Program-made: the position numbers and the translations under genes
NCBI GenBank assembly: GCA_965219955.1
Contig: OZ244799.1
Span: 2,688,001-2,752,000 of the forward strand
Direction of reading: 5' to 3'
Length of the DNA stretch: 64,000 nt
From: a bacterium
GTDB taxonomy: Bacteria > UBA8248
In this document: piece after piece, positions 24,324-43,933 of the stretch
Position numbering within the stretch: the first letter of the stretch is position 1
Layout: each line of letters starts with the position of its first letter
The notes under the pieces: generated by a model
The model's input: only the letters and a program-made list of their open reading frames with translations
Database searches by the model: none
Told to the model about the DNA's origin: nothing

Positions 24324-24600
24324 TAGACGGGCTGGAATATCTCTCTTAACTGGGAAAATATCGACCGCCCGGCAAGAAGAGTCGGCCCTTCTCATATCGG
24401 GAAAGCCGGTTCTCTAGCTCTTGAATCGCCTGAGATTGGTACTTTTCCCCGGCTCCCGACGGCTCATCCGCTCCAGGGCCAGGCCGGCTTCGAGCACCTC
24501 CTGGTTGAAGCGAAACTCCTCCCAGGAGCAACGCGCCAGCAGGTGCGGGGGGAGGCCATAGGTCTTCGCCTGGAAATGAATGACCGCCAGCAGCTCCTTT

Positions 24601-24993
24601 CTACGCCTGCGGAAACGCGTCGCCTTCCGGCGCGCCCTCCCCGGGGACAGGGGCCGCCGCCTCGTTCTGAAGCGCCGTGACGGCGGTGAAGATGGCGTCG
24701 GCATCCGCCGGGGCGAGTTCATGGATGCTCAGTTCATCCGGCAGGCATCGGCCCGGTTCCTTATCCGTCATCGAGCCGCGCTCGGGAACGAAGCAGCGCC
24801 TCAGGATGCAGTGCACCCACTCCCCGGTAAGCGCGTATTGCTCCTCCTCGCCCGCGGCGCCATTCGAGACGCCCGCGAACAGCTTGGGATACGCCGCCAT
24901 GTCCAGGAGATTCGGCGCGCGCACGAAACCCTTGAGCCCCGAGGGCAGGGTGATGGGCTTGCGGCCATGATTTCTGTATTCCGATATTTCCAC
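24601..24993 (-). CDS. Putative tail assembly chaperone (G-type); probable frameshifted extension to 24414
   Basis: Directly downstream of the tail tube gene; GTG 24993 with GGAGG RBS; an overlapping +1-frame ORF continues to stop 24414. Confidence 0.6.
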   Translation of the reverse strand: MEISEYRNHGRKPITLPSGLKGFVRAPNLLDMAAYPKLFAGVSNGAAGEEEQYALTGEWVHCILRRCFVPERGSMTDKEPGRCLPDELSIHELAPADADAIFTAVTALQNEAAAPVPGEGAPEGDAFPQA

Positions 24994-25059
24994 GATTCCT
25001 CCCGTTCGTTTTCGCTGGATCAAGACTTGACCAGGATGAAGAAGAATCCGCCTTTATTG

Positions 25060-25415
25060 GCGGCTGTTGAAAAACCCCTCGCCGGGGGCTCCGCCTTTAC
25101 CCCCCTGTTAAGGGGGGTAGGGGGGGTTGCCTTGCAGGGCGAGAGCCTGCGCCGCCGCTTAACCCCCCAACCCCCCTTGTCGAGGTTGTTGAAAAAGTCC
25201 TCTCAAGCGGTGGGGGGTACGATGGTTTTGTAGCAGGACAACCCAAAAGGGTTGTCCTGGCCTCCGTGCCTGTCCTGCCCTCCGTGGTTCTCCTTCGTCA
25301 GGACAGGCACGGAGGCCTGTCCCTACGGTAAACAATTCGATGATCGGGATTCCCTCCCTTCCTCGGGAGGGGTTTTTCAACAAACCCTTGTCAGGGAGGC
25401 TTTTTCAACCACCCT
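25060..25415. mobile_element. Nested MITEs between tail tube and tail chaperone genes
   Basis: Outer TIRs 25060-74 and 25401-15 (TSD tattg/tatgg); inner element 25182-25387 with perfect TSD TTGTC. Confidence 0.85.
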
Positions 25416-25426
25416 TATGGCGGAGG

Positions 25427-26566
25427 CTAGGTGAAGACGATGGCAATCTCGTCATCGCCCGCATCGCGGGCCAGGCGGAAGGGGGCGTCGTAGGTCAGCA
25501 AACCGTCGCGATCCGAAAAGCCCATATCCGCATACTGGCATTTGGGCGCGGTGATGGTGCAGATGTTCCCGGCCCTGTGGCCGACCTGCACTTTCAGGGG
25601 GAGCCTCGCGCCGTCTTCCCAATCGGCGAACACGTCGTCGGTGGCCTTGAGCACGGCCTCGGGGTCGAAGGAACCCGAGGGCGCGCGGCCCGTCACCATG
25701 GCGTTCAAGTGCCCGCCCGATATATTGGCGCTTTGGCGCAAGACCACCTCGTTGTTCATGGCGAAGCGGATGTTCGCCGCGTCGAAATGGAAGCCTCCGA
25801 ACGAAAAGCCGCTCATGAGAACGGGTTCGGGCGCCTGCGCGTCGTAGGACGCGCCGTCAGGGAGGGCTGCGTCGCTCACTTCGAAATCGGCCGCCTCGAA
25901 CTCCCAATCCACCGTGGGAACGCCGTCCAGGGGACAGTTGATGGAAAAACTCCCCATGCAGCCCAGATACATGACTTGTAAACCGTCGATGAACGCCGTC
26001 AGGCAGATCCTCGTATAGCCCGATTTATCGGAGACGGGCGCATAGGCGACGGAGGCGTCCTCGACGACGGTTTCCTTCATCGCGCACGCCTTGAACAGCA
26101 ATCCGTAATCCGGCGCGACGCCCGCTGCGCCCGAACCGCGCAACTCGGTGGTAAAGGAGATCTGCGCGGAGCGCTTTCCGGGAATCGAGGGAAATGGCGA
26201 GAGGCTCGCATCCTTCACCGCGCGCTCCAGCTGCTCCACGCTGATCTCGTGGGCGAAGTTGCCCGCCCGGAACAGTTCAGAAGCCCCGGCGGGCCTGTCC
26301 AGCAGATAGGCCGTGCCCGCAGCGGGGGCGGCGTCCCAGGCGTCGTCCACCGTGAGCGTCTCCGAGGCCGCGTCGAAACCGCTCACCTTTCTTCTTTGAC
26401 CGACGCCCATCCCCCGAATCGTGCGCAGCACCGAGCCGTTCCAGAAACCATCATCCTCTGAGAGCGCGGCGTCCACCAGGGTGGAAGCGTCTGCGGAGTC
26501 CGCCGCCAGTTCCTTTTCTTCCGTCGCGCCGATAGTCTGCCGATCCATCAAAATCGTATCGCCCAT
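25427..26566 (-). CDS. Phage major tail tube protein (siphovirus-type)
   Basis: ISFTTELRGSG..G.APDYG.LFKACA, GCMGSFSI, RAPSGSFDPEA and DRDGLLTYD patterns; follows the connector genes. Confidence 0.75.
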   Translation of the reverse strand: MGDTILMDRQTIGATEEKELAADSADASTLVDAALSEDDGFWNGSVLRTIRGMGVGQRRKVSGFDAASETLTVDDAWDAAPAAGTAYLLDRPAGASELFRAGNFAHEISVEQLERAVKDASLSPFPSIPGKRSAQISFTTELRGSGAAGVAPDYGLLFKACAMKETVVEDASVAYAPVSDKSGYTRICLTAFIDGLQVMYLGCMGSFSINCPLDGVPTVDWEFEAADFEVSDAALPDGASYDAQAPEPVLMSGFSFGGFHFDAANIRFAMNNEVVLRQSANISGGHLNAMVTGRAPSGSFDPEAVLKATDDVFADWEDGARLPLKVQVGHRAGNICTITAPKCQYADMGFSDRDGLLTYDAPFRLARDAGDDEIAIVFT

Positions 26567-26638
26567 ACCTGGTTCTCCTCCGTCTGTTTTTAGGGGCGAA
26601 GGCGCATCCTTCGCCGGATATTATTCTCTGCTCCCGAA

Positions 26639-27172
26639 TCAATCCCGCCGAATCCGCTCTATCGCCCGGAGCCTGATCTCGGCGTAATGGCAAAGCACGT
26701 TCCCGAACGTCCTCAGTTCAATCAGGTCCACCTGCGGAGGCTGAAGACGCTCCAGGGAGCGGACGCGCGGGGCGCCTGATTCATCGAGGAGGCGAAGGGC
26801 TTTATCGTCCCGGAAGCGGTCGCAAATCTCCTCGATCAGCTCCTGAAAGGCCGCCTCGCTGCCCGCCGCGTCCTCGGCGCTCATGATGCCGAACAGCAGG
26901 AACGTGTGGGTTCGCCTAGCGATGCCGGCGGGCGTGAAGCCGCCGGACGCATTCGAGCCGAGCGACGCGGCCTCCTCCCCTGCTCTCTCGCGCGTCAGCA
27001 CCCAGCCCCTGATCTGGGCGAGGCCGCCGCCCGCCTCCCACCGGAACAGGTCCAGGTATTTCCCCAGATCGGCCGACCAGCGCTGATAGGCGTGCACCCG
27101 CCCCGCCTCCGGCACGCTCGATATTTCCGCCAAAACGGCGTCGCCGATTTCCCTGTATCGTGATTTAGCCAC
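26639..27172 (-). CDS. Phage tail terminator / head-tail joining-like protein
   Basis: 177 aa, immediately upstream of the tail tube gene; overlaps the preceding gene. Assignment mainly positional. Confidence 0.55.
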   Translation of the reverse strand: MAKSRYREIGDAVLAEISSVPEAGRVHAYQRWSADLGKYLDLFRWEAGGGLAQIRGWVLTRERAGEEAASLGSNASGGFTPAGIARRTHTFLLFGIMSAEDAAGSEAAFQELIEEICDRFRDDKALRLLDESGAPRVRSLERLQPPQVDLIELRTFGNVLCHYAEIRLRAIERIRRD

Positions 27173-27674
27173 CGACTCTCCTCGCTATCTCGTCAAGCAG
27201 TTCACGAATGCGCTTATCGACTCGACCCTGGTTTTCCTCCAAGGCGCGCGCGAACATGCGGCGTCCCGGTATTCCGCGCCGGGCGATCGCGCGGGCGACG
27301 AGGAAGGACACCCTCTCGACAGACTCATCGGGCGGCCCCGGTTTGTAGGCAACCCACCGGTACAGCGGCGTACCCTCCCTCCAGGGCGGCATTCCGCCGC
27401 CCGGCCGGCGTCCGAATTCCACGTACCCGGCGTATGGAACGCGCGAGGCGACCACGCCGCGCAACACGCCTGGGTTCTCTCCCTTGATTTCGGTGTAAAT
27501 ACCGCCCCTGAGGTTCCCGCTCACGCCGGCGGGCGTTCGCGTCATGACCTCGCGCCTGAGCATTCCGGTGATCCCGGCCATCGCCTCGCGCGCGAGGCGG
27601 AAAACCTCCGCTTGCTCCCGCGCGATCGGCGGCGCCTCCACAAGGGTTTCCAGCGTTGTATATCGACGACGCAC
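27165..27674 (-). CDS. HK97 gp10-like tail-completion/neck protein
   Basis: TPAGVSGNLRGGI, YAGYVEFG and AIARRG..GRRMF motifs. Confidence 0.75.
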   Translation of the reverse strand: MRRRYTTLETLVEAPPIAREQAEVFRLAREAMAGITGMLRREVMTRTPAGVSGNLRGGIYTEIKGENPGVLRGVVASRVPYAGYVEFGRRPGGGMPPWREGTPLYRWVAYKPGPPDESVERVSFLVARAIARRGIPGRRMFARALEENQGRVDKRIRELLDEIARRVGG

Positions 27675-27692
27675 CTTGACTCCCCTCCCGGC

Positions 27693-28403
27693 CTAGCGGT
27701 CTTTGGACGCGCCGTGCGTGAAGTACTCGCCGCGCGCCATGGAGAGGAGCGCGTCCCAATCGAGAGACGCGCCCGCCGGACCCGCCACTTCGCCCTCCTT
27801 GCGTCCGAGATGGTTCTGGTATTTGCGCTCGAGTTCCCGGCCCAGGCGCGTGTATTCTCCAGACTTGCTCTGGTAGTCCGCAGAATCCGCGGCGAGGGTC
27901 GGGGTCGAGGACTGGGCGAAGCGGCGGGCCAGGAGGTGACATCCCTCCGCGGCGGCCAGCCACGCCACGGCGGTCAGATCGTTTTCAGGAACGCTCGTGC
28001 GCGCATCGTCGGCCGTGTGCTTTCGCGTATAGAACAGGCGTAGCGTCCGGCCCATTTGAGGGACGAAATACACGAGTCGGAACTTCGCCGCCGGGGTCCC
28101 TTTCGCATAGATGATCCAGGCGCTCCTCCGTAAATAAGAGGGCTTTCTCTCCCCCTGGGGATATTCCACCTCCCGGATGAAGGAGAGGGAATCGTCCCAG
28201 TCTTCGGGCAGGGGAAAATCGAAGGTCTCGCTGTCACCCGCATAATCGGCGAACGAGACGAGCGGCCTGTCCCTGCTGTAGCGCGTGAGCGCGGCGTTAA
28301 CCAGATCGGCGTAGTCCGCCTCCTCGACACCGAACTCCCGGGGCAGCGCGCCCGCCTTCAACAAGACCTTCACTTCCTTGATGATCGTCTGCCTGCCGGC
28401 CAT
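27693..28403 (-). CDS. Phage head-tail adaptor/connector-like protein
   Basis: ATG 28403 with GAGGAG RBS; 236 aa; located between capsid and gp10-like genes. Confidence 0.55.
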   Translation of the reverse strand: MAGRQTIIKEVKVLLKAGALPREFGVEEADYADLVNAALTRYSRDRPLVSFADYAGDSETFDFPLPEDWDDSLSFIREVEYPQGERKPSYLRRSAWIIYAKGTPAAKFRLVYFVPQMGRTLRLFYTRKHTADDARTSVPENDLTAVAWLAAAEGCHLLARRFAQSSTPTLAADSADYQSKSGEYTRLGRELERKYQNHLGRKEGEVAGPAGASLDWDALLSMARGEYFTHGASKDR

Positions 28404-28444
28404 TTCTGCATTTCTCCTCTGTCTTACCGACTGATGCGGCGGCT

Positions 28445-28786
28445 CTAAGTCTTCAGCGTGAGCTTGGCCTCGAACGTGAACGAAGACTCCTCCCCGCCGA
28501 CGGCCCACACAAGCCTGAGCCAGGGGCCGATGTTCGCGAGCTTGACGAGGGTTTTCCCGGTCGAGGTGATTTCCGCGGATTCGGTATGGACGAAAACCGC
28601 TTCATCGTCCGCCGGCCCGGTCTGCACCTCGAAATCGAGCACCGGCGCGACGCCCGAGACCGCCGTCACGTCGATGAACAAGAGCGCCTCGGTGAAGCGG
28701 CTCACCTCGAACGCCGTGCTGCCTCCCTCGGCGACGCGGGCCGCGGGAGGAGCGAGGACTATGGTGTGGGTTCGCCTGTCGGACAT
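28445..28786 (-). CDS. Small all-beta virion protein (head decoration/cement-like)
   Basis: ATG 28786 with GAGGAG RBS; IDVTAVSG..PVLDFEVQ...WLRLVWAVGG..SFTF; directly after the capsid gene. Confidence 0.55.
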   Translation of the reverse strand: MSDRRTHTIVLAPPAARVAEGGSTAFEVSRFTEALLFIDVTAVSGVAPVLDFEVQTGPADDEAVFVHTESAEITSTGKTLVKLANIGPWLRLVWAVGGEESSFTFEAKLTLKT

Positions 28787-28818
28787 GGCTTCTCCTCTGA
28801 AGGGCAAACGCCGCGCGA

Positions 28819-30897
28819 CTACTCGGGCGCGCCGCGGTAGAAGCCGCGGAAATCCAGGACGGCGCCGCCGTAGACGTGCCTGATCTTGTAGCGAATCTTG
28901 TCCGCGCTGAACCCGCTGCCGGCCGAGGGGTTGTCCTCGATGAACAGTTCGGGCTCGCGCATGTCGTCCATGAAGCCGATCTCGATGGTGTCCATGAGGC
29001 TCGGGTCGGCGATCATGTACCAGTCGTTCGCTTCGGTGAGTTCCGGCACCCACAAGGGCTCGACCCCCAGGCGGCTGATGAAGCTCGGCTGGTTGGAGTT
29101 TCCGCCCTCGACGACCTTGACGGGCGACTGGGTGACGTCGAACGCCTCTTCGAGCAATTCGGTCGGGTGAATGAGATATTTGGGCCGCGCCTGCGCCGCC
29201 ACCTCGACGCCGTCTTCCCCGTAAAACGTCTGCTGGCCCATCGTCTTGACGCCGGCAATGACGTTGTCGTACGTGAGCTCGTTCGTGGAGGTGTTGTTGT
29301 GGTCGGCGTGGAACAGCGCGTCCCCGTCGTAGATGTCCGCGTTGGACGCCAGGAAATCGAACACGAAGCCGTTCAGGGTGCGCTGGGCCGCGCGGGCGAG
29401 GCGCTGGGGAATCATGCGGATCGCGCCCATGTCGTCGTTCTGGATCATCTCCCAGGTGAGGTCTTCCACGCCGCCGCGCTTGGCCACGGCGTACGTCACC
29501 TCCTCATCCGTCGGGGAGGCAAGCGCCGGGTAGGTGGCCTGTTCGGCGACCGTTTGCAGATCGCCGTAACCGCCGACGCGCACCCGGCGGTTGGTGCGGA
29601 AATCCTTGACGGGAACCACGGCCGAGACGATCTTCTTCCACTGGTGGAACCGCTCGTCCCTGAAATCGCCCAGCATGGCGCGGCGGATGGAATCCCCGAA
29701 CGCCTCGCCCCACGTGCTCGTCTGCAAGGAGGCGGAGAGTCGGCGCACCCCGTTCCAGTCCTCGGCGGCGCGGTGATAGTGGAACGTCTCGGCGAAGAAC
29801 TGGCGCGGGGTGAGGCGGTGGCCCGTGAAATCCTGAAACGCCTCGCTCATGAAGCGGTAGGGCCGCTCTCCGTCTACCGCCTCGTCGCGCGAACTCCAAA
29901 GCCCGTCCAGAGCCGCCCGCTTGCGGTCCGCCTCGTCGCGCATCACCTCGGCACTCGCGCCGAAACCACGGAGCGCTCCGCTCGCCGTGAGTTTTTCCAG
30001 CGTGGCCGCCTCGACCCGGATCGCCTCCTCGATTTCCTCCTCCGTGAAGCTCCCGTCCCTGAACCGGTCGCGGACCTTCTCCTGAACGGCTTCGGGAAGT
30101 GCCGAGGCCGCGAGTTTCCGGGCGAGCATTCCGCGCGCAGCAGCCCCGGCTTCCGTTCCATCCTCCACGGATTCTTCTCCTTTTTTCTTCAGGTCCAGCT
30201 CGAGGCCTGCATCCTCACAGGCAGCGAGGAACTGTTGCGGCGTCCACGCGTCGCCGAGCTTCTTGCCCGATTCGGGCGCCACGCTTTTGAGTTTTTTCCC
30301 GAGTTTTTCGAACATCTTCACCTCCGATTGAATGGAATGAGTGGCGGCGAGACCCAGAATCCCGCCCCCGAGCTTGCCTTTGTGCACGACGTCGACGGAG
30401 TGAACCGCCAGAATCTTTTCGAAATGCAATACGAGCCCGTCGGCCTCTTCGCGGAACTCCGCCTGCGCGAGCACGTCGAAGGAAAAGCCGAAAGGCTCAT
30501 CGAGGCCCCGGGCCAGCGCATCGTGCGCCAGCGCCTGGAACCAGGCCGCTGAGCGCGAAACCGCAAACGTGCTCAAAAGCCCCTCCTCGCCCATGCGGAC
30601 CTCGCGGTGCCAGCCGACCAGGTTCCTGATGTCGGGGCCGCTCGAGGCGGCGTGGTTCGCAAACGCCTGCGCGCCCTCGAACAGGGGAGCGGCCTCGCGC
30701 AGCACGTCGCGGGGCAGGAACCACTCCCCGTCCCTCGAGTAGCCGGCCTTTGCGATCAGCACGTCGAAATCCCAGGCTTCGTCCGGCGGCTGCGCCTCTT
30801 TCGCCACCGCGCGGATGAGGTGGCCATGCAGCCTGAGAGGGTGAGAATCCTTCTGCGCCTCCGCGCGCGCCCAAATGCGGTTCATCCATTTTTTCAA
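28819..30897 (-). CDS. Fused prohead protease/scaffold and Mu gpT-like major capsid protein
   Basis: N-terminus AFANH...GFSFD...SVDVV; C-terminus VKDFR, EMIQNDDMGAI, LFHADHNN, PKYLI.P, WYMIADP and YKIRH.YGGAVLDFRGFY; TTG with AAGGAG RBS. Confidence 0.85.
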   Translation of the reverse strand: MKKWMNRIWARAEAQKDSHPLRLHGHLIRAVAKEAQPPDEAWDFDVLIAKAGYSRDGEWFLPRDVLREAAPLFEGAQAFANHAASSGPDIRNLVGWHREVRMGEEGLLSTFAVSRSAAWFQALAHDALARGLDEPFGFSFDVLAQAEFREEADGLVLHFEKILAVHSVDVVHKGKLGGGILGLAATHSIQSEVKMFEKLGKKLKSVAPESGKKLGDAWTPQQFLAACEDAGLELDLKKKGEESVEDGTEAGAAARGMLARKLAASALPEAVQEKVRDRFRDGSFTEEEIEEAIRVEAATLEKLTASGALRGFGASAEVMRDEADRKRAALDGLWSSRDEAVDGERPYRFMSEAFQDFTGHRLTPRQFFAETFHYHRAAEDWNGVRRLSASLQTSTWGEAFGDSIRRAMLGDFRDERFHQWKKIVSAVVPVKDFRTNRRVRVGGYGDLQTVAEQATYPALASPTDEEVTYAVAKRGGVEDLTWEMIQNDDMGAIRMIPQRLARAAQRTLNGFVFDFLASNADIYDGDALFHADHNNTSTNELTYDNVIAGVKTMGQQTFYGEDGVEVAAQARPKYLIHPTELLEEAFDVTQSPVKVVEGGNSNQPSFISRLGVEPLWVPELTEANDWYMIADPSLMDTIEIGFMDDMREPELFIEDNPSAGSGFSADKIRYKIRHVYGGAVLDFRGFYRGAPE

Positions 30898-30993
30898 GGG
30901 AAACTCCTTTCTCGCTGGCCTTCCAGAAATCCGGCTTCCGGCGATGCGCCGGAGACCGCCGCCCGGAAAAAAAGTAGCGGGCGCAACGGCGAC

Positions 30994-31046
30994 AAACTAG
31001 CGCAAGGAGTCTCGAAGGCGGGCCGCGCAAATGCGGGGAAATGCGC
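30994..31046 (-). promoter_or_regulatory. Putative activator-dependent promoter of the head/tail cluster
   Basis: 23-bp box cgcgcaaatgcggggaaatgcgc at 31024-31046; 24-nt spacer; TAGTTT at 30999-30994 (minus strand). Same layout upstream of the terminase. Confidence 0.75.
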
Positions 31047-31255
31047 ATTTGAAGCCTTTTTTTGCGGAATTTTGAATTTGCTAATTGAAAAATTTAAGAA
31101 AATGCGGTAAATTACGGAAAATTCTGGAGTTGCGGACAATGTGGGTGGTCCCGGCGTCTACCAATTCTGGATACTTCGCCCGCCACTCAGGAATTACCAG
31201 GATTCGCCGAGCAGCCAAGACCGCCCCTTGAACAAGACGGACGAGGTTTGATCTC

Positions 31256-32551
31256 ATGTGGGGCGTCGCTCAACCGGCCTTGAATTTCTTCCAGAAACTC
31301 TCCTGGAACCATATGCTCGACATCGGGATCATGTGGTTCCTGCTCTATCAGGTCTACATACGCTTCAGGGGCACCCAGGCGATGCGCCTCCTCGTGCGCG
31401 TGTTCGCGGTGTGGCTCATCTATCTCGCCTCCCAGGCCGCGGGTCTGCACCTGACTTCTTTCCTGCTATGGGCCATCTGGATAGCCGTGCTCATCCTGTT
31501 TCTCATCAATTTCCACGGCGAGATCCAGAAGATATTCTTCCAGCTCAACCCGGTGCGCAGAATCTCCATCCTGCTGCGCCGGGCGATGCGCATCCGCCTG
31601 CCGGACGAGAGCGTCGCCACCATCGCCGGCGCCGCCTTTTCGCTCGCGGCGAAGCACATGGGCGCCATCATCGTCGTGGAGCACCGGGATGTGACCGATT
31701 CACTGCTGAGAAGTCCGGGCGAAGAGATCGAGGCGGACATTCAGCCGGCGCTGCTGGAAACCATCTTCTTCAAGGGGTCGCCCTACCATGACGGCGCCGC
31801 CGTGGTTCGCGAGAACAAGGTCTCGCGCGCGGGATGCGTTTTGCCCCTTTCCGAGAACCACGCTCTGCCGCCCGAGTTCGGCACGCGCCACAGGGCGGCG
31901 GTCGGCATCACGGAGCGCTGCGACGCCCTGGCAATCGTCATCTCCGAGGAACGCGGAGAGATCACCTGCGTGGAAGGCGGCAACGCAAAGGCGATCCAGG
32001 ACGAAGATGAACTCGCCTCCTGGCTCACGGCGCGGCTGCGCGCGGCCCGCGAGGCGGGACAGACGAAAGGGCGCATCTCGCTCCGCCACGTTTTCCAGAA
32101 CTGGCGGCCCAAGCTCGCCGCGCTGGCGGCCGTCATTTTCCTCTGGTCGCTCGGCGGTCAGGAGAGCCAGAATCCGCAGAATTTCTTCCCGCAGCTCGAA
32201 AGCAAGGTGGAGGAGGAATTCCGCGTCCAGGTCCACTATTACAACGTTCCGAGCGGCGTTACCCTGCCGGCGGATGCGGCGAAAGAAGTCAGAATCCGTC
32301 TCAGAGGCAGGCGCGATCTGCTCAATTATATCGACGCCACCCGCCTGCGCGTGAACGTGAACCTCGCCAAAATGACGCCCGGCGCGCATACGCGCACGCT
32401 CTCGGGCCGCGACATCGACCTGCCGAACGGTCTCGAATTCCTGAGCGCGGAACCAAAGACCCTCGACTTGAATCTCGCGGGCGAACCGGCTCCTGAGAAA
32501 ATGACGAAATCGAGCGCCTCCACCGAAACGCCCGAGTCCTCGAATTTTTAA
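31256..32551 (+). CDS. cdaA: Diadenylate cyclase CdaA/DacA fused to a C-terminal TM and YbbR-like domain
   Basis: 3 N-terminal TM helices; HDGA, GTRHRAA and SEERG motifs; NWRPKLAAL..V.FLW followed by a beta-rich YbbR-type domain. Confidence 0.88.
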   Translation: MWGVAQPALNFFQKLSWNHMLDIGIMWFLLYQVYIRFRGTQAMRLLVRVFAVWLIYLASQAAGLHLTSFLLWAIWIAVLILFLINFHGEIQKIFFQLNPVRRISILLRRAMRIRLPDESVATIAGAAFSLAAKHMGAIIVVEHRDVTDSLLRSPGEEIEADIQPALLETIFFKGSPYHDGAAVVRENKVSRAGCVLPLSENHALPPEFGTRHRAAVGITERCDALAIVISEERGEITCVEGGNAKAIQDEDELASWLTARLRAAREAGQTKGRISLRHVFQNWRPKLAALAAVIFLWSLGGQESQNPQNFFPQLESKVEEEFRVQVHYYNVPSGVTLPADAAKEVRIRLRGRRDLLNYIDATRLRVNVNLAKMTPGAHTRTLSGRDIDLPNGLEFLSAEPKTLDLNLAGEPAPEKMTKSSASTETPESSNF

Positions 32552-32950
32552 CTAAGGCCCCTCATTTCAGGTACTTGCGTTTTCAGCCACGCGAAAATTT
32601 GCTTTTTCAGAACAAAATACCGATATTGAAAGAACCGGGCCATCGCCGCCGAGACGTCCCAGGCGCTCAGACGAGCGAGGCGGGCGAACCATCTCAGGTG
32701 GTTCTCGGCGCAGGCCGGGTGAGGCGGTGAGGAGCCGAGGCGGAAAGCGGCTCCGGTCCGGTTTCGGGGAACCCCTCAAGAGAAGGAGGATGCGATGATA
32801 TCAACGATAAATCGCTTCAGCCGTGCGGAAACGCCGCCCTCCCCGGCCCCATCGCGTCAGCCGGGCGGGGAGGAAGACAAAGGCTGATGCGCAAATAAAG
32901 GCGTCACGACGCCTTTGTAAGGTGAGACGAGTTCTCACCCCGGAAAAAGA

Positions 32951-36015: not shown

Positions 36016-37016
36016 AACACGGAATCGCCATGCTGCCCCCCGCCCCCGACACCTACGCGCACTGGTGCCGGCTCTCCGAAGAGGCGGGCTTCGACGTCAT
36101 CTGGGTGCCGGACTCGCAATCCCTCTACCGGGAGCTTTACGTCTCGTGCGCCATCTGCGCGGCGAACACCTCGCGCGTCCTGCTGGGCCCCAACGTCACC
36201 AACCCGCTCACGCGCCACCCCGCGACGGCGGCGAGCGCCATCGCCACGGTGGATGAGTTCTCGGGCGGCCGCGCGTTGTTCGGGATCGCCACGGGCGACA
36301 GCGCCGTCCTGAACCTGGGATTGCGCCCAAGCCGCGTGGACGAGGTGCGCGATTACGTTCTCGCCATGCGCGGGATGTTAGAGGAGGGCGCGGCGCACTA
36401 CCGGGGAAAACCCTGCACGCTCAACTGGCACAAAAAGCGGGTCCCCCTTTACATCGCCGCAGAGGGGCCGCGCACCATCCGTCTGGCCGGCGAGATAGCG
36501 GACGGCGTCACCATCGGGTGCGGCCTCACGCCGGAAGTGGTGGCCGATTCCCTCACCTGGCTGGAAGAAGGCGCGAAAAAATCGGGCCGAAAGGTGGACG
36601 ATCTGGACGTCTGGTGGCTGGCGAAGGTGAACGTGCGCGAAGACGGCGAGCAAGCGCGCGAGGAGATCCGCATGGCGCTCGCCGCGAGCGCGCACCACGC
36701 CTTTCGCTTCACGACGGAGGGCAAGCGGATTCCCAAGGAACTCCTCTCCGCCGTCGAGACCCTGAAGCGAGGATACGCGTTCCACGAACACGAGATGGTG
36801 GACAAGCAGACGAACGCCGAACTCGTGGACAGGCTCGGGCTGCGCGAGTACCTGCTCGACCGCTTCGCCATCGCGGGCAACCCCGCAGAATGCAGGAAGC
36901 AGATCGAATCCATGAAGGCGACCGGCGTCGAAGGTTTAAGAATCGCCGCCCACGTTCACGACAAGCCCGCCTTCATCCGGGCATGGGGCCGCGAGATAAT
37001 CGGCAAGATCGAGTAA
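36012..37016 (+). CDS. LLM family (Mer-like, probably F420-dependent) oxidoreductase
   Basis: DSQ, VTNPLTRHP, GIATGDSA and AAEGP motifs. Confidence 0.88.
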   Translation: MKHGIAMLPPAPDTYAHWCRLSEEAGFDVIWVPDSQSLYRELYVSCAICAANTSRVLLGPNVTNPLTRHPATAASAIATVDEFSGGRALFGIATGDSAVLNLGLRPSRVDEVRDYVLAMRGMLEEGAAHYRGKPCTLNWHKKRVPLYIAAEGPRTIRLAGEIADGVTIGCGLTPEVVADSLTWLEEGAKKSGRKVDDLDVWWLAKVNVREDGEQAREEIRMALAASAHHAFRFTTEGKRIPKELLSAVETLKRGYAFHEHEMVDKQTNAELVDRLGLREYLLDRFAIAGNPAECRKQIESMKATGVEGLRIAAHVHDKPAFIRAWGREIIGKIE

Positions 37017-37033
37017 CCGGAAAGGATATCTTC

Positions 37034-38035
37034 ATGAGACATGGCATTTCATTCAGACCGCCCGATACGGATTCGTTCGCCCGCTGGTGCAGGTGCGCGG
37101 AAGAACTCGGCTTCGACGCGGTATTCATCCCCGATACGCAATCCCTTTACCGGGAGGTCTACGTCTCGTGCGCGATTTGCGCGATGGAGACGAGCGAGAT
37201 CATCTTCGGCCCTTGCGTCACGAATCCCGTCACGCGCCACCCGGCGGTGGCCGCGAGCGCCATCGGCACCATCAGCGAACTCTCCGGCGGGCGCGCCTTC
37301 TGGGGGATCGCCACGGGCGACAGCGCGGTGCTGAATCTGGGCCTCAGGCCCGCGAAGCTCGCCGAGATGCGCGAATACGTCCTCGCCGTGCGGGGCATGC
37401 TCGAAGAAGGGAGCGCGCTTTACAAGGGGAACAACGCCCGGCTGAGCTGGCACAAATCCCGCGTGCCCATCCACATCGCCGCCGAAGGCCCGAAAACGCT
37501 GCGCCTCGCGGGCGAGGTGGCCGACGGCGTCATCATCGGAACGGGCCTCATCCCCGAGGTCATCGCGGACACGCTCTCCTTCATCGACGAGGGCGCCAGG
37601 AAATCAGGCCGCAGGGTGGAAGATCTCGACCTCTGGTGGCTGGTGGACGCCCACGTGGACGCGGACGGCGAGCGCGCCCGCGAGGACATCCGCACCGCCC
37701 TGGCCGCGAGCGCGCATCATTCCTTCGCCTTCACGCTGGAGAACAAGCGCATCCCCAAAGAACTCGAATCCGGCATCCGCGCGCTGAGGGACGGCTACCA
37801 GACTTCGGAGCACGGCTTCATGGATAAATCCAACAACGCCGCGCTCGTCGATGAGTACGGGCTCAGGGACTACCTGGTCGACAGATTCGCCATCGTCGGC
37901 ACGCCCGAAGAATGCCGGAAGAGGCTGGAAGACCTCGAAAACCTGGGCGTCAAGGGACTTCGCATCAACAACAACCTGCCCGACAGGACGGTCTTCATGA
38001 ACGCCTGGGCGAAGGACGTGCGGGGGATCGCCTAG
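37034..38035 (+). CDS. LLM family (Mer-like) oxidoreductase, tandem paralog
   Basis: ATG 37034; visibly similar to the preceding gene throughout. Confidence 0.88.
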   Translation: MRHGISFRPPDTDSFARWCRCAEELGFDAVFIPDTQSLYREVYVSCAICAMETSEIIFGPCVTNPVTRHPAVAASAIGTISELSGGRAFWGIATGDSAVLNLGLRPAKLAEMREYVLAVRGMLEEGSALYKGNNARLSWHKSRVPIHIAAEGPKTLRLAGEVADGVIIGTGLIPEVIADTLSFIDEGARKSGRRVEDLDLWWLVDAHVDADGERAREDIRTALAASAHHSFAFTLENKRIPKELESGIRALRDGYQTSEHGFMDKSNNAALVDEYGLRDYLVDRFAIVGTPEECRKRLEDLENLGVKGLRINNNLPDRTVFMNAWAKDVRGIA

Positions 38036-38181
38036 ACTTCCCGCGAATAAAGCGCTTGATTCCCACCGCCTAGATGCAAACGGGGAGTTCCCCTCTCCCT
38101 GCCGCTTCGGTTAGAATGGCTGGAAATTATCGAAAAAGATGGTTTCGACCTCCCCGAAAAACCTCGCACTGGAGGGTGGAC

Positions 38182-38730
38182 ATGAGCGAAATGACGAAGG
38201 AAAAGATTCTCGTCTACGAACCCGTGGCGGAGGCTCCGGGCGCGAGCGCCGTCATGGCCGCGCGGCCCGAGAGTTTGAACGGCAAGAGCGTGGGCCTCAT
38301 CAACAACACCAAGGATTTTACGGATGAGATTTTCGACGTGATGGGCGCCGCGCTCGAGGAACAGTTCCCCGGCGTGCGCGTCGTGCGCTACCGGAAGGAA
38401 TCCGTGAGCGGCGCATCGCCCGCCTTGATGGAGCAGGTGGAAGGAGAGTGCGACGCCGTCGTTTCCGGGCTCGGCGACTGAGGCTCTTGCACGTCGTGGA
38501 GTATCCACGACAGCGTCGCTTTAGAGAAACGAGGGCTGGCCACGGTCACGGTCGTCACCGACGCCTTCGAGGCTTATGCGAAGCAGCTCACCAAGCTGCA
38601 CAAGATGAGCGAGCTTCCCCTCGTCACGCTGCCCCACCCCATCGCGGGCAGAAAGCGCGAGGAGGTGGACGAGATGTCGGCGAGAGCGAGCGCGCATCTG
38701 GCGTCCGCCCTCACGCAGGCGAGCGCTTGA
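38182..38730 (+). CDS. UGSC-motif selenoprotein (Sec at TGA 38479-38481)
   Basis: ...SGLGD-U-GSCTSWSIHD..LEKRG.. read-through to TGA 38728-30; UxxC motif; SECIS-like stem 11 nt downstream. Confidence 0.88.
38493..38511 (+). promoter_or_regulatory. Bacterial SECIS-like hairpin
   Basis: gtcgtgga-GTA-tccacgac starting 11 nt after the UGA. Confidence 0.72.
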
Positions 38731-38737
38731 TATCGGC

Positions 38738-39838
38738 ATGGACGCGCCGGAGCCCGCCCGCCAGATAGCGCTCGATGAGGACGCGGGCGCGATATACGAG
38801 CACTTCTACGAGGAGGGCTGGACGGACGGGCTGCCCGTCATCCCGCCGACCGAGGAGCGCGTCGCCGAAACCTTACGCTTCACGGATTATGCTCCCCAAG
38901 ACGTCATCGCCCACGTTCCCCCGAGAAACGCGCCCGCCACGGTGGAGATCATCGCCATCAACGCCGTGATGGCGGGCTGCAGGCCGGAATACCTGCCCGT
39001 ACTCATCGCCGCCGTTCAGGCCATGACGGAACCCGCCTACAACCTCTACGGCCGCCAGACGACCACCCACCCCGGCGCGCACCTGATGATCGTCCACGGG
39101 CCGGTTCGGAACGAACTCGAGGTCAACTGCCGCCAGAACGTGTTCGGCCAGGGCTGGCGCGCCAACGCGACGCTGGGACGCGCGGTGAGGCTCCTGATGA
39201 TGAACGCAGGCGGCGGCATCCCCGGCGTGACGGACATGGCCACCCACGGGCATCCGGGAAAATACGCCTACACCATCGGCGAGGACGAGGAGGGCAGCCC
39301 CTGGCCCGCCTTTCACGTGGACAGAGGCCTCGCGCCAGATACTTCCGCCGTCACCATGCTCTGCGCCGAGTCGCCCCACAACGTGAACGACCTGGTGAGC
39401 AAGACGCCCCACAAATACCTGGGCACGGCGGCTTCGGCCATGAGCCATTTAGGTGCGAACGGCGTATACCGGAGCGGGCTTCCGAGCGAGCAGATGCTGG
39501 TGCTGACCGCGGAGGCCGCTACGTGGCTTTCGGATCAGGGGTGGTCGAAGGCCGACGTTTCCCGGTTCATCTTCGAGAACGCGCGTCAGCCGATTCGCCT
39601 GATGCGAGACCGCGGCGGCTTCGACATGACGCCGCTCGCCCCTTTCGTGAACTTAGAAGAAGACGAGGACATGGCCCCCATCGTCCCGAGGCCCGAAGAC
39701 ATCCTCATCGTGGTCGCCGGCGGCCACGGCCGCCACATGCAGGCTGTCCTCACGGCGAGCTACAACCTGAGCGTCACCAGGGCCATCACGAGAAAGGACG
39801 GAACGCCGATTGGATCGGTAAGGGAGTTTGTGGAGTAG
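38738..39838 (+). CDS. Conserved hypothetical protein typically adjacent to UGSC proteins
   Basis: GWTDGLPVIPPT.ERV, AVMAGC.PEY and RANATLGRA motifs; 7 nt after the UGSC gene. Confidence 0.8.
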   Translation: MDAPEPARQIALDEDAGAIYEHFYEEGWTDGLPVIPPTEERVAETLRFTDYAPQDVIAHVPPRNAPATVEIIAINAVMAGCRPEYLPVLIAAVQAMTEPAYNLYGRQTTTHPGAHLMIVHGPVRNELEVNCRQNVFGQGWRANATLGRAVRLLMMNAGGGIPGVTDMATHGHPGKYAYTIGEDEEGSPWPAFHVDRGLAPDTSAVTMLCAESPHNVNDLVSKTPHKYLGTAASAMSHLGANGVYRSGLPSEQMLVLTAEAATWLSDQGWSKADVSRFIFENARQPIRLMRDRGGFDMTPLAPFVNLEEDEDMAPIVPRPEDILIVVAGGHGRHMQAVLTASYNLSVTRAITRKDGTPIGSVREFVE

Positions 39839-39873: not shown

Positions 39874-40380
39874 CTACGAGTCTCGGCCTGACTTCCTTCC
39901 GAACCCATAACCACCGGCGAACCCGGCGCCCAATCCTCCTAAACCCGTCAAAACCGGCGTAATGAGTTCTTTCGCACCGAATGTTAAAAACAACCAGGAC
40001 AAACCACCGCAAGCCAGCAAAACGACTACTAAAACACCCAAACCAAACCATTGGCTTCTTTTCTGGGCTTCTGTTTGAAAGGCTAATTTCTGTTGTGCGA
40101 AATGAAACTCGTTCTCATCCCTTTTGCGCGCGCTTTCCAGACCGCTTTTCATAAGATCGTGCCGAGCTTCCGGACTCAAATCTTTCAATATCTCAGGATT
40201 CGCCCATGGAGGACCTGAATGTTCGGTTAAACGCAATCCGAGAATGTTCTGAGTGCTTGGGTTATCTGGTACAGGCGTTACATTGGAGGGTGCCAAAACT
40301 TCGGGGTCTTTGGGGGAGTCATCAGTTTTCTCGGCATCCAAGTTTTCAGAGCCCGAATCGGTCACGTACTTCCCTTTCAT
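39874..40380 (-). CDS. Low-GC membrane protein with two C-terminal TM helices (DUF2335-like); start uncertain
   Basis: SGPP...PEIL motif, helical region, then two hydrophobic segments. Confidence 0.6.
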   Translation of the reverse strand: MKGKYVTDSGSENLDAEKTDDSPKDPEVLAPSNVTPVPDNPSTQNILGLRLTEHSGPPWANPEILKDLSPEARHDLMKSGLESARKRDENEFHFAQQKLAFQTEAQKRSQWFGLGVLVVVLLACGGLSWLFLTFGAKELITPVLTGLGGLGAGFAGGYGFGRKSGRDS

Positions 40381-40684
40381 ATTTCGTCGCTTCATCGAAA
40401 GCATACGCATCGAACTCGGACTCTAAATCAAAAACGGATCCGCTCGCCTGCATGGATTCCGAAAAAGCCGCCCAAAGATGGTAAAGAGCAAATGCGTACG
40501 CCTCGTTTTGAACGGGGTCGCTATCATCCAGCTTGCCTTCGTTCTCATCCAACCTTTTTTCGAATTCCGATTGTAATCTTTTCAATCTATTCAGGGATTC
40601 TTCCATCTCGCTCAGCGAAGGCCGCCTTGACAATGGATAAAAACCACCACCATACATTTCATTACTCCCGGATATTTTTCTCAT
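40346..40684 (-). CDS. Low-GC hypothetical protein
   Basis: 112-aa helical ORF overlapping the downstream membrane protein gene. Confidence 0.5.
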   Translation of the reverse strand: MRKISGSNEMYGGGFYPLSRRPSLSEMEESLNRLKRLQSEFEKRLDENEGKLDDSDPVQNEAYAFALYHLWAAFSESMQASGSVFDLESEFDAYAFDEATKYEREVRDRFGL

Positions 40685-40777: not shown

Positions 40778-42133
40778 CTACCCCTCCAGGTCCATGCCGA
40801 ACTGGCCGGCGAGGTGGGTGATGAGCTTGCCGGCGGCGTCATCGCTCATCCAGCCGCGCGCGGTGGCCGTCTCGAGCGCCGTGCTCACGCGCAGGAGCGC
40901 CTCGGACATCTTCTCGGTGTCGCGCACGGAGATATCCGGCAGAACGGGCGAGACGCCCGAGCGCAGCGCCTCATCAGAAAGCGCGCCCGCGCGCCGGGCT
41001 TCTTCGAGTTGTTTATCCGCCATGGCTTGCAGGATATGGCGCACGGTGCGCTGGCGGCGCGTCATCTTCTTCAAGGTGGGCTGATCCATCGACTCCGCCG
41101 AAGCGCGGTTCACGTCCTCTCCCTGGGCGAACCAGTGGGAGGGAACGCCCACGCCGCCCAGGAGCAGGCCCCGCATCATCTTGGCGATGCCCTGCGCGCC
41201 GGATTCGCCTCCCTTCAAGTCGGGCGAGACGGCCTGCCACTCCTCTTTTTCGTTGTGCACGCGCACGCTCGAGGGCTTGGGCGCGACGCCGTTCTCGGCG
41301 AGCCACTCGGCTATCTTCTCGGGGCCTGCGCCCTTCAAGGTCACGTCGTAGATGAAGCTGTTCTGCAGGCGCGCACGCTCGACGGCGTCGAAGATGAAGC
41401 GCTCATAGGTGTCTATCCAGTCGATGGCGGCGAGCAGGTCCGAAGCGCCCCGCGCGGCGTCGCTCGCCTTGTTGATCTGGAACAGGAACGCCTCCCCGTC
41501 CGTGAAGCGCGCACGCTCCCGCCGGGCGGAGGCGCTCAGATAGCCGCGCGGGTCGCCGCCCAGGACCGTTCTGACCCGCTTGCCCTTGCGCGCCGCGCCA
41601 CCCGGCCCCTGGGCGCGCAGGACGACTCCGATCGGTAGAGCGCAGTTGTCCGGGTCCGTCACCACCTCTTCTATCAGGCGCGGGCTGACGTAGCCCAGGC
41701 GGACGCGCCCCTCAAAGCGCGAGACGGCGACGGGCAGGAGAAGTTCCCCGAAGATGCCGAGTTCGGAGACCAGCCGCTCGAAGCGGATGTCCATCTGGTT
41801 CACGGGGTCGCTCCAGAACGCCCTGACTGCCTGCAGGGCGCGCTCATCCTCGGAATGCCAGCTCACTCCCTCGCCCACGACGTGATCCGTCACGATCTCG
41901 ATGAGGCGCTGGCCCATGAGGTTCGTGAGCCATAATTCATACGCCAGCGCCTGCATGCGGGTGTGGGTGTAGGGCGAAACCCCGCCGCGCCCCTCGCCGA
42001 GGGGCCGCCAGATTCTCTCGTCCGGATCGATCGCCGCGCTCATCCGCCCTGAACGCTGCGCGGCCTCCCCTTTTCTCTTGAGTCGCGACTTCCGCCCGGG
42101 GGCCTTCACCCTCTTTGCACTTTCCATCTTCAT
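40778..42133 (-). CDS. Phage portal protein
   Basis: 451 aa directly after the terminase; IFGEL, RG.SDL...IDWID, VRVHN, GVP.HWF and NRASAE patterns; ATGA overlap. Confidence 0.8.
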   Translation of the reverse strand: MKMESAKRVKAPGRKSRLKRKGEAAQRSGRMSAAIDPDERIWRPLGEGRGGVSPYTHTRMQALAYELWLTNLMGQRLIEIVTDHVVGEGVSWHSEDERALQAVRAFWSDPVNQMDIRFERLVSELGIFGELLLPVAVSRFEGRVRLGYVSPRLIEEVVTDPDNCALPIGVVLRAQGPGGAARKGKRVRTVLGGDPRGYLSASARRERARFTDGEAFLFQINKASDAARGASDLLAAIDWIDTYERFIFDAVERARLQNSFIYDVTLKGAGPEKIAEWLAENGVAPKPSSVRVHNEKEEWQAVSPDLKGGESGAQGIAKMMRGLLLGGVGVPSHWFAQGEDVNRASAESMDQPTLKKMTRRQRTVRHILQAMADKQLEEARRAGALSDEALRSGVSPVLPDISVRDTEKMSEALLRVSTALETATARGWMSDDAAGKLITHLAGQFGMDLEG

Positions 42134-42777
42134 CTCCTCTTGAGAATCCGCTTGTTCAGAGCCTGCGGCATCACCGTTCCCCCGGCGAGGGGGACCAGTA
42201 TTCCCTCGCTCTGCGCCAGGGATTCGGCCAGCCGCGCATAGGCGCAGGCGAAGCCGAAGTGGTTCTCGTTCCGCTCATACGCCAGCACCGTCTCACCGGA
42301 GGAGCGGATGCGCGGTTTTTTCCTCAAATTCATCAGGTGACGCTCCACCTCGGCGAGGAGCGCCTCCTCCCCGGTGTCCCCGGGACTCGGCAGCAGGACC
42401 CGCCCGGCCCCTTCGTGAAACTCCTCGACCAGGTGATCCAAAAGGTCTTCGCGGTCCATCCGCACGTGGCGGCGCTCGACGCCCAGAAACGAGACGTCCC
42501 TGGTCTGCATCTCCCCCTCGGTGTGCCGCCAGATGAAGCCGCCCTCGGGGTTCAGGTCGTACACCGCGCGCGCGGACTGGGTGTGGGGTCCGCCGTCTAT
42601 GACGAACGCTTCCACCCCGAGACCCGAGAACACGGCGCGGCACCGCTCGACGAGCCGCTCGATGGGAGGCGCTTCGAAATAAATCCACCGGGCGGGCCGG
42701 CCCTCCTCGCGCTCGCGCACCGCGACCGCGCATACGTCCCCCGTATCGATTCCGCAGAAACGATAGCCCGCGCTCAT
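42130..42777 (-). CDS. Large terminase nuclease domain encoded as a separate gene
   Basis: RNase H-like CGIDTG, FVIDG.P and NHF..A..YA motifs; ATGA overlaps on both sides. Confidence 0.7.
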   Translation of the reverse strand: MSAGYRFCGIDTGDVCAVAVREREEGRPARWIYFEAPPIERLVERCRAVFSGLGVEAFVIDGGPHTQSARAVYDLNPEGGFIWRHTEGEMQTRDVSFLGVERRHVRMDREDLLDHLVEEFHEGAGRVLLPSPGDTGEEALLAEVERHLMNLRKKPRIRSSGETVLAYERNENHFGFACAYARLAESLAQSEGILVPLAGGTVMPQALNKRILKRR

Positions 42778-43832
42778 GCGGGCGCCTCCGCCAGGTGGTA
42801 GGGTGCGGCGTTGCGCAGACTTCTAAGCAGTTCATGCGAAATCGGCTGGGTGTCACCCGCATCAGGGATGGCGAGCGACGAGCAGCGAAAGCGCGCCTTT
42901 TCGCTCGGAAGAGAGGCGGCGGCCCATTTCGCCGCGACCCGGTCCAGACGCACCGCGCCGACCGCAAGCTGGGAGAGGCGATAGCTCCTGTGCTGGGGTC
43001 TCACGCGCGCGGCTTTCCACCGTCCCGCCCCCCTGTCGAGCGCGCCGCCGCAGTCCGGGCAGACGAGGCCATTTGCACACAGGATCCCCGGCCAGTGCTC
43101 CTCCGGAACGCTCTCGGCGCGGCATGTCGGACACCTCACGCGCCAGCGTCTTTGATCCCCACCCTCGTACATGGCGTGAATGCCGGCGCCCGGGGTTCTC
43201 CCCACGGCCAGGTTGAACGTCAGGGCGAGAGGGGAGGCGTCGATGCGGTCGTTCGACCACTTGAGGTTGTCCGGCGGAAGATCGTCCACCTCGTCGCGGA
43301 CAAGCACGTCGAGCGGGATGGATATGGCGTTGCCGATGTCCCTGAGACCCAGGATGTACAGAAAACGCGAACCCCCGCGGCCGGGGAACTCCTTCAAGCC
43401 CTTGGGGGATGCGCCCTTGTATTTTCCCTCGCGCATGATCGAGGCGATACTTTCGTTTCGAATCACCGGGCGCACGCGCGTCTGATCGAAGCGGTCCGCG
43501 AAATCCTGATCCGGCAGAAAATAGCCCACGTTCAGGCGGTGGACGATGACGCAGTAGAGCGCGAAACCGATGGCGAGGGTGGTCATGCCCACCTGCGCGC
43601 CCTTCAGGACGCTGATGGTCCGATCGGGCGTGCGTTTTCCGAGAACCTCGTCGAGCGCGGCGGCGGGCTCCAACAGCGCCTCTCTGCCTTTGAAGGTGAA
43701 AGCGCCGTTATCGGTCGACACCTCGCTCGTCAGAAACCGGGCCAGCCCCTGCATCCCGCCCGAAAAACGCGACGCGCCGTCCGCCGCGAGGTCCATGCCG
43801 GGCGTCCGAATGATTTTCAGGGACTTTCGCAC
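42774..43832 (-). CDS. Large terminase ATPase domain (lambda GpA-like)
   Basis: KGAQVGMT (GpA-type Walker A), LVRDEVD (Walker B), GDQRRW.V.CP.C...CPDCG; GTG with GGAGGAG RBS. Confidence 0.85.
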   Translation of the reverse strand: MRKSLKIIRTPGMDLAADGASRFSGGMQGLARFLTSEVSTDNGAFTFKGREALLEPAAALDEVLGKRTPDRTISVLKGAQVGMTTLAIGFALYCVIVHRLNVGYFLPDQDFADRFDQTRVRPVIRNESIASIMREGKYKGASPKGLKEFPGRGGSRFLYILGLRDIGNAISIPLDVLVRDEVDDLPPDNLKWSNDRIDASPLALTFNLAVGRTPGAGIHAMYEGGDQRRWRVRCPTCRAESVPEEHWPGILCANGLVCPDCGGALDRGAGRWKAARVRPQHRSYRLSQLAVGAVRLDRVAAKWAAASLPSEKARFRCSSLAIPDAGDTQPISHELLRSLRNAAPYHLAEAPA

Positions 43833-43880
43833 GGGGACTCCTCCAGTCCAGGGATGCCGCGCGCATCCTCACGGGGGAGG

Positions 43881-43933
43881 AATATAGGGGATGGGGCCTG
43901 TAAGCCCTGACGCGCAAATGCGGGGAAATGCGC
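43881..43933 (-). promoter_or_regulatory. Putative activator-dependent promoter of the terminase-portal cluster
   Basis: Identical 23-bp box at 43911-43933; 24-nt spacer; TATATT at 43886-43881 (minus strand). Confidence 0.75.

Follow-up and report, generated by a model that had tools for sequence, protein, structure and literature searches.

Phage virion, packaging and lysis genes kept at four sites of a bacterial genome behind a common promoter module: a candidate gene transfer agent

The window analysed here, a stretch of 64,000 nucleotides (nt) of a bacterial genome (G000:C1:2688001-2752000), contains two minus-strand clusters of phage virion genes separated by ~10 kb of host genes, and raises the question of whether these clusters are the debris of a prophage or parts of a particle that the host has kept. 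The source genome (G000) is a metagenome-assembled genome (MAG) in a single contig (C1) of 4.28 Mb from an uncultivated organism, whose family is carried in public records as Nitrospinota, Nitrospinaceae or Candidatus Tectomicrobia; public runs containing this stretch are labelled sponge, coral and marine metagenomes. An earlier note on this DNA had proposed a novel gene transfer agent (GTA). We conclude that an ancient tailed-phage genome was probably domesticated by the host and broken up, with its virion, packaging and lysis genes kept, and that these genes represent a candidate new GTA unrelated to RcGTA. On the genomic data a domesticated, co-regulated particle system is a far better fit than a prophage in decay, because most of the 22 species have the frames open, selection on them is host-like, the promoter is kept at a fixed spacing and the genes are lost jointly.

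Open reading frames (ORFs) of the window were annotated by hidden Markov model scans against Pfam and PHROG profiles. Presence was counted in 22 other species genomes of the genus and, more widely, in 41 species genomes of the family. Selection was estimated as pairwise Nei-Gojobori dN/dS against G000 with our own script, and medians are given; dS is probably underestimated in this genome, which is rich in G+C at third codon positions (GC3), and dN/dS is read only against neighbouring genes. The larger cluster lies on the minus strand between 30897 and 24414, where the earlier note had placed a head-to-chaperone gene set, and family matches and layout identify the following features, with lengths in amino acids (aa).

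28819-30897, minus strand: fusion of a probable protease with the major capsid protein, 692 aa; PF25209 7e-44 at residues 391-688, phrog_29592 7.5e-132; dN/dS 0.17
27693-28508, minus strand: conserved 271-aa protein (orf271) between capsid and gp10, no family match; dN/dS 0.16
27165-27674, minus strand: HK97 gp10-like head-tail connector or tail completion protein; PF04883 3.3e-5, phrog_5 1.1e-14; dN/dS 0.50
26639-27172, minus strand: conserved 177-aa protein at the neck or terminator position (term177), no family match, syntenic in relatives and viral contigs; dN/dS 0.20
25427-26566, minus strand: tail tube, 379 aa; PF18906 2.7e-10, phrog_290 4.9e-19; dN/dS 0.16
25072-25413, no strand: high-copy repeat resembling a miniature inverted-repeat transposable element (MITE) between the tube and chaperone genes, with up to 269 overlapping blastn matches elsewhere in the genome
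24601-25023, minus strand: tail assembly chaperone, G-like frame, assigned by its position after the tube and its overlap with the next frame; dN/dS 0.15
24414-24722, minus strand: second chaperone frame, T-like, overlapping the end of the G frame; dN/dS 0.25

The capsid gene is single copy in G000. Its product also matches phrog_4523 ('major head and protease protein'), and the C-terminal 300 aa are an HK97-fold capsid domain. The Mu gpT family PF10124 scores 19.1 bits on it, below the cut-off of 20.1, and a PDB sequence search with the capsid profile returned only Mu GpT-domain capsids (E 0.014). The N-terminal ~240 aa offer a lead to a probable prohead protease (Peptidase_S78/S77 clusters, protein-atlas score 0.93); a PDB sequence search with the N-terminal 256 aa gave no match. 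The separate 'decoration' and 'adaptor' genes that had been proposed downstream of the capsid reduce to a single ORF between capsid and gp10, that of the 271-aa protein, which is syntenic beside the capsid in relatives and viral contigs and may by position be a connector or decoration protein. The two chaperone frames are arranged like a G/GT tail chaperone pair, the G-like frame having a likely start at GTG 24993 and no family match. Metagenome contigs show depth spikes at the 25072-25413 repeat. Three further frames, orf140 (23973-24395), o155 and o165, gave dN/dS values of ~0.8-1.3 and were rejected as probably not genes in those frames.

The smaller cluster had been read as terminase ATPase, nuclease and portal on the minus strand from 43832 to 40778, and family matches fall at those places.

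42774-43832, minus strand: ATPase half of the large terminase (TerL), 352 aa; PF05876 GpA_ATPase 4.6e-18, phrog_675 1.2e-49; dN/dS 0.23
42130-42777, minus strand: nuclease half of the large terminase, 215 aa, an ORF of its own; phrog_675 positions 362-550, 1.2e-11; dN/dS 0.19
40778-42133, minus strand: portal, 451 aa; phrog_10963 2.1e-47; dN/dS 0.18

The terL gene starts with GTG, 49 nt downstream of its promoter module, and the ATG of the nuclease frame overlaps the stop codon of the ATPase frame (ATGA). The split, with its [A/G]TGA junction and change of frame, is kept in 9/9 genomes having both halves, a sister-genus locus (L066) among them, and is therefore old and not a sequencing error. 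Downstream of the portal, at 39874-40684, lie two small minus-strand ORFs of 178 and 112 aa (o178 and o112), which are found in some genus members only and are missing from many carriers; a contig of run X5 skips this stretch. Both survive in a genome without the portal (G010) and are thus probably not parts of the system.

Tape measure, tail tip, small terminase (TerS) and lysis loci were, on the suggestion of the earlier note, sought elsewhere in the genome, and candidates for all of them were found. The virion, packaging and lysis genes of G000 make up five operons at four sites, those outside the window being as follows.

G000:C1:302624-309397, minus strand: tail-tip operon (locus L081), with ORFs of 381, 177, 403, 331 and 231 aa, two small membrane-protein ORFs and a 561-aa protein last
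G000:C1:2850485-2851386: small-terminase operon, a conserved 110-aa ORF and then the small terminase
G000:2850485-2851117: small terminase, Mu gp27-like; PF11985 29.9 bits against a cut-off of 28, phrog_426 'terminase small subunit' 2.6e-9
G000:C1:2852474-2853677: lysis operon, a 53-aa membrane protein, a DUF1508 protein, an endolysin and a holin of three transmembrane segments (3TM), ~1.4 kb beyond the small terminase gene

The tail operon lies ~2.4 Mb from the window clusters and was traced through the ORFs that directly follow the chaperones in sister lineages (L059, L062), whose homologues stand at 302.6-309.4 kb. The small terminase was traced from a further site of the promoter motif described below. 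The endolysin, a phage lysozyme, matches PF00959 (1.5e-11) and phrog_7 (1e-19), and the holin matches PF11351, 'Holin of 3TMs, for gene-transfer release' (3.3e-11), and phrog_3427 (4e-24). The small terminase and lysis operons are 119 kb from terL in G000 and 9-21 kb from it in relatives, the longer distance being due to a species-specific insert of ~91 kb after amtB.

Some further observations concern the surroundings of these loci. The ~91-kb block (window 46200-64000, continuing to G000:C1:2825929) is missing from the corresponding place in six relatives, holds very large ORFs (1571, 1751 and 1154 aa) and is probably a species-specific island; no tRNA genes were found in the window. A genome scan for a tape measure with PF10145 gave nothing in G000, and phrog_167 was discarded as a probe, as it hit only M23-peptidase-like stretches in G000 and was positive in all 14 control genomes too. 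Divergent from the tail operon, with an intergenic region in common, is a gene for an M23 peptidase with a Csd3-like domain (L081:15695-17179; G000:C1:309694-311178), which stands beside the tail operon in 6/9 relatives and whose membership of the system, for example in cell-wall penetration, is only possible. The 110-aa protein has a helix-helix-helix-hairpin order compatible with a winged helix, which we do not count as evidence. Upstream of its ORF (L095:8390-8640; G000:C1:2851389-2851639) are three tandem copies of ~80 nt, each comprising the ribosome binding site, the GTG and the first codons of the ORF; only the third runs into the gene, and the copies resemble a triplicated 5' end or leader. 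Just downstream of the small-terminase operon a low-GC HicA-like ORF (E 1.7e-4, under the Pfam cut-off) and a DUF1902 ORF (L095:6214-7018; G000:C1:2849213-2850017) possibly form a HicAB-type toxin-antitoxin pair, which is not seen there in most relatives.

All five operons are preceded by a promoter module in which CGCATTT occurs twice and is followed, after 29 nt, by TAnnnT. The two copies in the window are as follows.

30994-31046, minus strand: promoter module of the head-to-tube operon, with the 23-mer GCGCATTTCCCCGCATTTGCGCG, 29 nt, then TAGTTT
43881-43933, minus strand: promoter module of the terL-portal operon, with the same 23-mer, 29 nt after the second GCATTT, then TATATT

This 23-mer occurs exactly twice in G000, upstream of the capsid gene and of terL. 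The tail operon has its module 65 nt upstream of the first gene, with TATAGT at 29 nt, and the lysis operon reads GCAGTT-N4-GCATTT, 29 nt, TAGAAT; the spacing is exactly 29 nt for the capsid, terL, tail and terS promoters. With TAnnnT as the -10 box, the direct CGCATTT repeats lie one helical turn apart, near -45 and -55 and centred near -50, and no -35-like element was found at the usual distance in the module, a geometry that suggests an activator-dependent promoter. Among relatives the motif is kept upstream of the capsid in 19/19 genus loci having that region (127-151 nt before the matched capsid start), upstream of terL in 6/6 and upstream of the tail operon in 9/9. The full module (motif, 29 nt, TAnnnT) occurs 28 times in G002, eight times in G007 and four times in G001, and is absent from G009 and G010; a reversed-pattern control gave 0 in all five genomes. 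In G007, which has a small genome, four of the eight full modules belong to capsid, terL, tail and tape-measure genes. A reading of the motif as an SOS/LexA box was rejected, since the motif is absent upstream of recA and lexA.

The earlier note had claimed a promoter box shared by the two window clusters. The sharing holds, as the identical 23-mer shows, but the box is not private to them: the looser pattern GCAWTT-N4-GCAWTT has 74 sites in G000, against one in the reversed sequence. Of these sites 63 are intergenic and 41 are followed by TAnnnT at 28-29 nt; those before the particle operons lie in unique sequence. No regulator gene was found near the extra modules of G007 and G001, which stand beside genes for an MFS transporter and an SNase-like nuclease, a methyltransferase-like ORF within a duplicated element, and others without assignment. 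Of the only four full modules in G001, one stands before a staphylococcal-nuclease-like gene (L117:5060-5596), and the G000 homologue of that gene (G000:C1:2281004-2281453) has no module nearby. The MITEs that had been noticed between genes of the window correspond to high-copy repeats in three intergenic stretches (25072-25413, 33884-34330 and 44069-44450), and G000 holds several intergenic repeat families with up to ~280 overlapping copies, with motif sites for example at 2561025, 3691323 and 2464715.

Almost every species genome of the genus has orthologues of the particle genes, at the same sites between host genes. The capsid, tube (one interrupted), tape-measure-like and t403 genes are present in 20 of the 22, the portal in 21 (19 intact, one in broken pieces and one as a 26-aa remnant), the small terminase in 21 (one a remnant, one split) and the holin in 18. 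In the family as a whole the capsid is found at about 60% identity or above (at least 60%, approximately) in 32/41 species genomes. The order F420 operon, chaperones, tube, neck, capsid, cdaA to a 366-aa ORF (o366), portal, TerL, amtB is identical in 6/6 complete genomes and in the genus loci fetched. The tail locus has the same host flanks in 9/9 relatives, and for the small terminase and lysis region synteny holds in the five relatives with the small terminase gene in the stretch analysed. The gap between portal and capsid measures 7.7-11.9 kb in every genus member and ~1.5-2 kb in class-level relatives, with an intermediate insert of one luciferase-like monooxygenase (LLM) gene and cdaA at the sister-genus locus (L066).

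Two species, G009 and G010, lack any module, and at the syntenic sites the phage modules are excised between host genes that have been retained. Both keep the F420 operon, cdaA through the LLMs, amtB, the peptidase genes, a 220-aa ORF and an outer-membrane protein gene; G010 also keeps UGSC and o366, together with remnants of the portal (41 aa) and small terminase (44 aa). Host proteins of G009 and G010 differ in their identity to those of G000 (~84-95% and 74-88%), which hints at two separate losses.

The layout might be thought to come from assembly or binning, since G000 is a MAG with a CheckM-type completeness of 94% and contamination of 5%. The earlier note had named mis-assembly as a finding that would overturn its proposal. 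The interleaved order recurs in independent assemblies, several of them single-contig, and in unrelated public runs, too, contigs join phage to host genes (contig 25 of run X6, for example, corresponds to 25347-33953), and we consider an artefact to be practically excluded as the source of the split arrangement.

Selection on the particle genes is purifying, as expected by the earlier note, and resembles that on neighbouring host genes. The dN/dS is about 0.15-0.30 in 18 of the 19 particle genes tested, with 0.15-0.25 for the genes of head, neck, tube, portal and TerL and 0.18-0.30 for those of the tail; the small terminase gives 0.31 and the holin 0.16. Host genes give 0.09-0.21 in the window flanks and 0.06-0.26 beside the tail and terS loci, with most at 0.09-0.20; the 'LLM2' ORF was excluded from this comparison, its frame being wrong and its value void. 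Maximum likelihood trees of concatenated head, tail or host proteins, built for ten genomes, recover the same deep splits, (G019,(G007,G001)) and (G022,G008), in line with the congruence that had been predicted. The GC and GC3 values of phage-type and host-type genes in the window are equal, which bears out the host-like composition judged earlier by eye. In two RNA libraries, assembled contigs overlap portions of the chaperone, neck, capsid, portal and terL genes, with depths resembling those of adjacent genes; this is a weak hint of transcription given that DNA carry-over is possible.

The origin of the genes can be approached through free viruses. Related capsids with 24-40% identity were found at 43 IMG/VR loci, many on contigs of 35-45 kb, and none of the viral contigs among these matches is close to the genus sequences. 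In viral contigs (for example L140) and distant prophage-like loci the order portal, capsid, orf271, gp10, term177, t381, t177, t403 is contiguous; a single phage type is therefore the source of both the head locus of the window and the distant tail locus. Such free or integrated phages (IMG/VR L119-L161; loci of G032, G027, Parafrankia and Micromonospora) have the same head-neck-tail gene order as the G000 system, but differ in that their genes are contiguous, their capsids are 24-42% identical and most have no detectable match to this TerL. A contiguous full prophage in close relatives, which the earlier note had named as a finding against its proposal, was not found; the genes form one block only in free viruses and in distant relatives, where capsid identity is 24-42%. 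A set divided into five operons at four sites, with positions fixed across the genus, does not make an intact or recently defective prophage.

RcGTA of Rhodobacter capsulatus and the RcGTA-like elements of Alphaproteobacteria consist of virion genes kept by the host, inherited vertically under purifying selection, spread over several loci and activated in trans, with a separate lysis cassette. The G000 genes resemble them in being long host-kept, vertical and under purifying selection, in lying at several loci with the lysis cassette apart, and in having no replication or integration genes among the neighbours scanned; the only family in common is that of the holin (Pfam PF11351). They differ in their capsid (PF25209/Mu gpT-like and fused to a protease), in their GpA-type TerL, present as two ORFs, and Mu gp27-like TerS, in the interruption of the head-tail cluster by host genes, in their promoter motif and in phylum. 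A PF04860-type portal has no match in G000, with a positive control in Caulobacter, and the earlier description of the system as unlike RcGTA is upheld by this and by the different capsid and terminase families. BaGTA of Bartonella, VSH-1 of Brachyspira, Dd1 of Desulfovibrio and VTA of Methanococcus are separate domestications of tailed phages into host-controlled DNA-packaging particles; the G000 system is likened to them by this general description. PBSX of Bacillus is a contiguous phage-derived element with its own repressor, conserved in the species, which packages host DNA and cannot propagate. The G000 genes differ from it in being spread as five operons over 2.4 Mb, with no adjacent repressor among the neighbours scanned. 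In the parts of the literature consulted we found no report of a GTA in Nitrospinota or Tectomicrobia, the GTAs met there being alphaproteobacterial.

Several findings weigh against a working GTA. The system is dispensable, being absent from 2/22 species, and carriers show damage: G015 has a broken portal, G012 a tube interrupted by ~1.8 kb and G004 a split small terminase, and a holin was not found in G015 or G018. The 561-aa protein is called tape-measure-like from weak matches (phrog_1535 1.2e-7; distant PF10145 and PF20155 proteins) and its position, the five tail-tip proteins match no family, and AlphaFold models have low confidence (pLDDT 43 for t403 and 46 for the 110-aa protein). The gp10 gene has the most relaxed dN/dS of the set, the T-like chaperone frame is +1 relative to the G frame where -1 is usual, and no slippery site was seen at their overlap. 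A TerL in two ORFs could in principle have lost its function, though relatives have the same split and selection acts on each half. G000 pairs with G002 in the head and host trees and with G022 and G008 in the tail tree (support 97), which may reflect recombination of the tail locus between species. As for the promoter, the exact module has 0 sites in 4/5 genomes of other family genera and one in the fifth, 61 of the 74 motif sites in G000 fall within one repeat family in an all-against-all blastn comparison, some repeat-borne modules stand ~320-340 nt upstream of ORFs of ~390 aa, and other sites precede ordinary genes, such as those for a CNNM transporter and an amidohydrolase. A scan of one of the ~390-aa ORFs (L086) identified it as a P4-type tyrosine integrase. 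The promoter is thus not strictly 'dedicated', and its presence in repeats may instead point to mobile elements with a common induction signal.

Damage and loss in some species would also be expected of inert prophage fragments that decay slowly and owe their conservation to linkage with essential host genes, and the missing replication and lysogeny genes and the MITE insertions inside the clusters agree with such a history. Linkage cannot keep frames open, however, and about 20 genes have intact frames in most of the 22 species, between which protein identity has fallen to 65-80%, with dN/dS values (0.15-0.30) equal to those of host genes. The unlinked tail locus 2.4 Mb away behaves alike, the promoter is conserved at a fixed spacing, and where the system is lost every module disappears but the linked host genes remain. 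We regard inert remnants as very improbable. The same evidence of a selected, co-regulated virion and lysis set applies to particles that are made and selected for something other than general transfer, be it PBSX-like killing or altruistic lysis, or service as a 'helper' that moves resident elements carrying the same promoter. A helper would account for the module in repeat families and upstream of ~390-aa ORFs, the one scanned being an integrase, and for the disappearance of all module copies along with the system in G009 and G010. A pure killer would not need TerS, TerL and a portal kept under purifying selection, and known PBSX-type elements are contiguous. A role other than general transfer is on balance unlikely. 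A further scenario, to which we give a similarly low likelihood, would make the system a family-wide, independent GTA whose promoter was copied by MITE-like repeats and integrase elements; these would fire together with it and ride in the particles as satellites, and their copies would be purged when the GTA is lost.

On the reading that we prefer, a domesticated GTA, a putative trans-acting activator would switch on all operons in the producing cell. Procapsids would assemble on the portal and be matured by the fused protease, the small terminase and two-piece TerL would fill the heads with DNA, a non-contractile tail would be built on the tape measure with the G/GT-type chaperones, and holin and endolysin would release the particles. 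That the small terminase, TerL and portal have all been kept makes it likely that the particles package DNA, and as the coding set spans 2.4 Mb a particle could not carry its own genome, so that the packaged DNA would have to be host or other resident DNA, as in a GTA. Packaging and transfer of random host DNA are predicted from the genes. A dedicated activator is likewise suggested by a promoter that is common to the operons and is lost along with the system, but that also stands in repeats and before other genes.

To our knowledge only a handful of independent GTA lineages are known, nearly all from cultured Proteobacteria, spirochaetes and one archaeon. The present system, if it is a GTA, would add one from a phylum without genetic tools, living in dense host-associated communities where gene exchange matters. 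It would also represent an extreme end state of domestication, in which host genes pierce the head-tail cluster, TerL is in two pieces, the tail lies megabases away and one type of promoter serves throughout. G009 and G010 are natural 'knock-outs' and offer a comparative handle on the activator and on the selective benefit.

The host genes within and around the window clusters are not part of the particle system.

31256-39838, no strand: interleaved host block; Pfam matches to cdaA (DAC), a cytidine/guanine-type deaminase, a 6PGDH-like dehydrogenase, two LLMs and UGSC, and in addition o366

The outer flanks are formed by the F420 genes cofD/C/E and by amtB, both as first described. The host-type genes reported between the clusters were recovered in the case of cdaA, the deaminase, the LLMs and UGSC; the supposed 'OsmC-Sec' genes were not, the ORFs at 32801-33735 having no Pfam match and a dN/dS near or above 1, which suggests wrong frames. 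Integrase, repressor and replication families were not found among the neighbours scanned at the four sites, a scan that was not exhaustive, and to that extent the earlier statement that no repressor or replication gene is adjacent stands. The cdaA gene (31256-32551) has a weak YbbR-like C-terminal part, its match in G010 contains one in-frame TGA, and a second DAC-domain gene of the genome lies at G000:C1:3686960-3687334.

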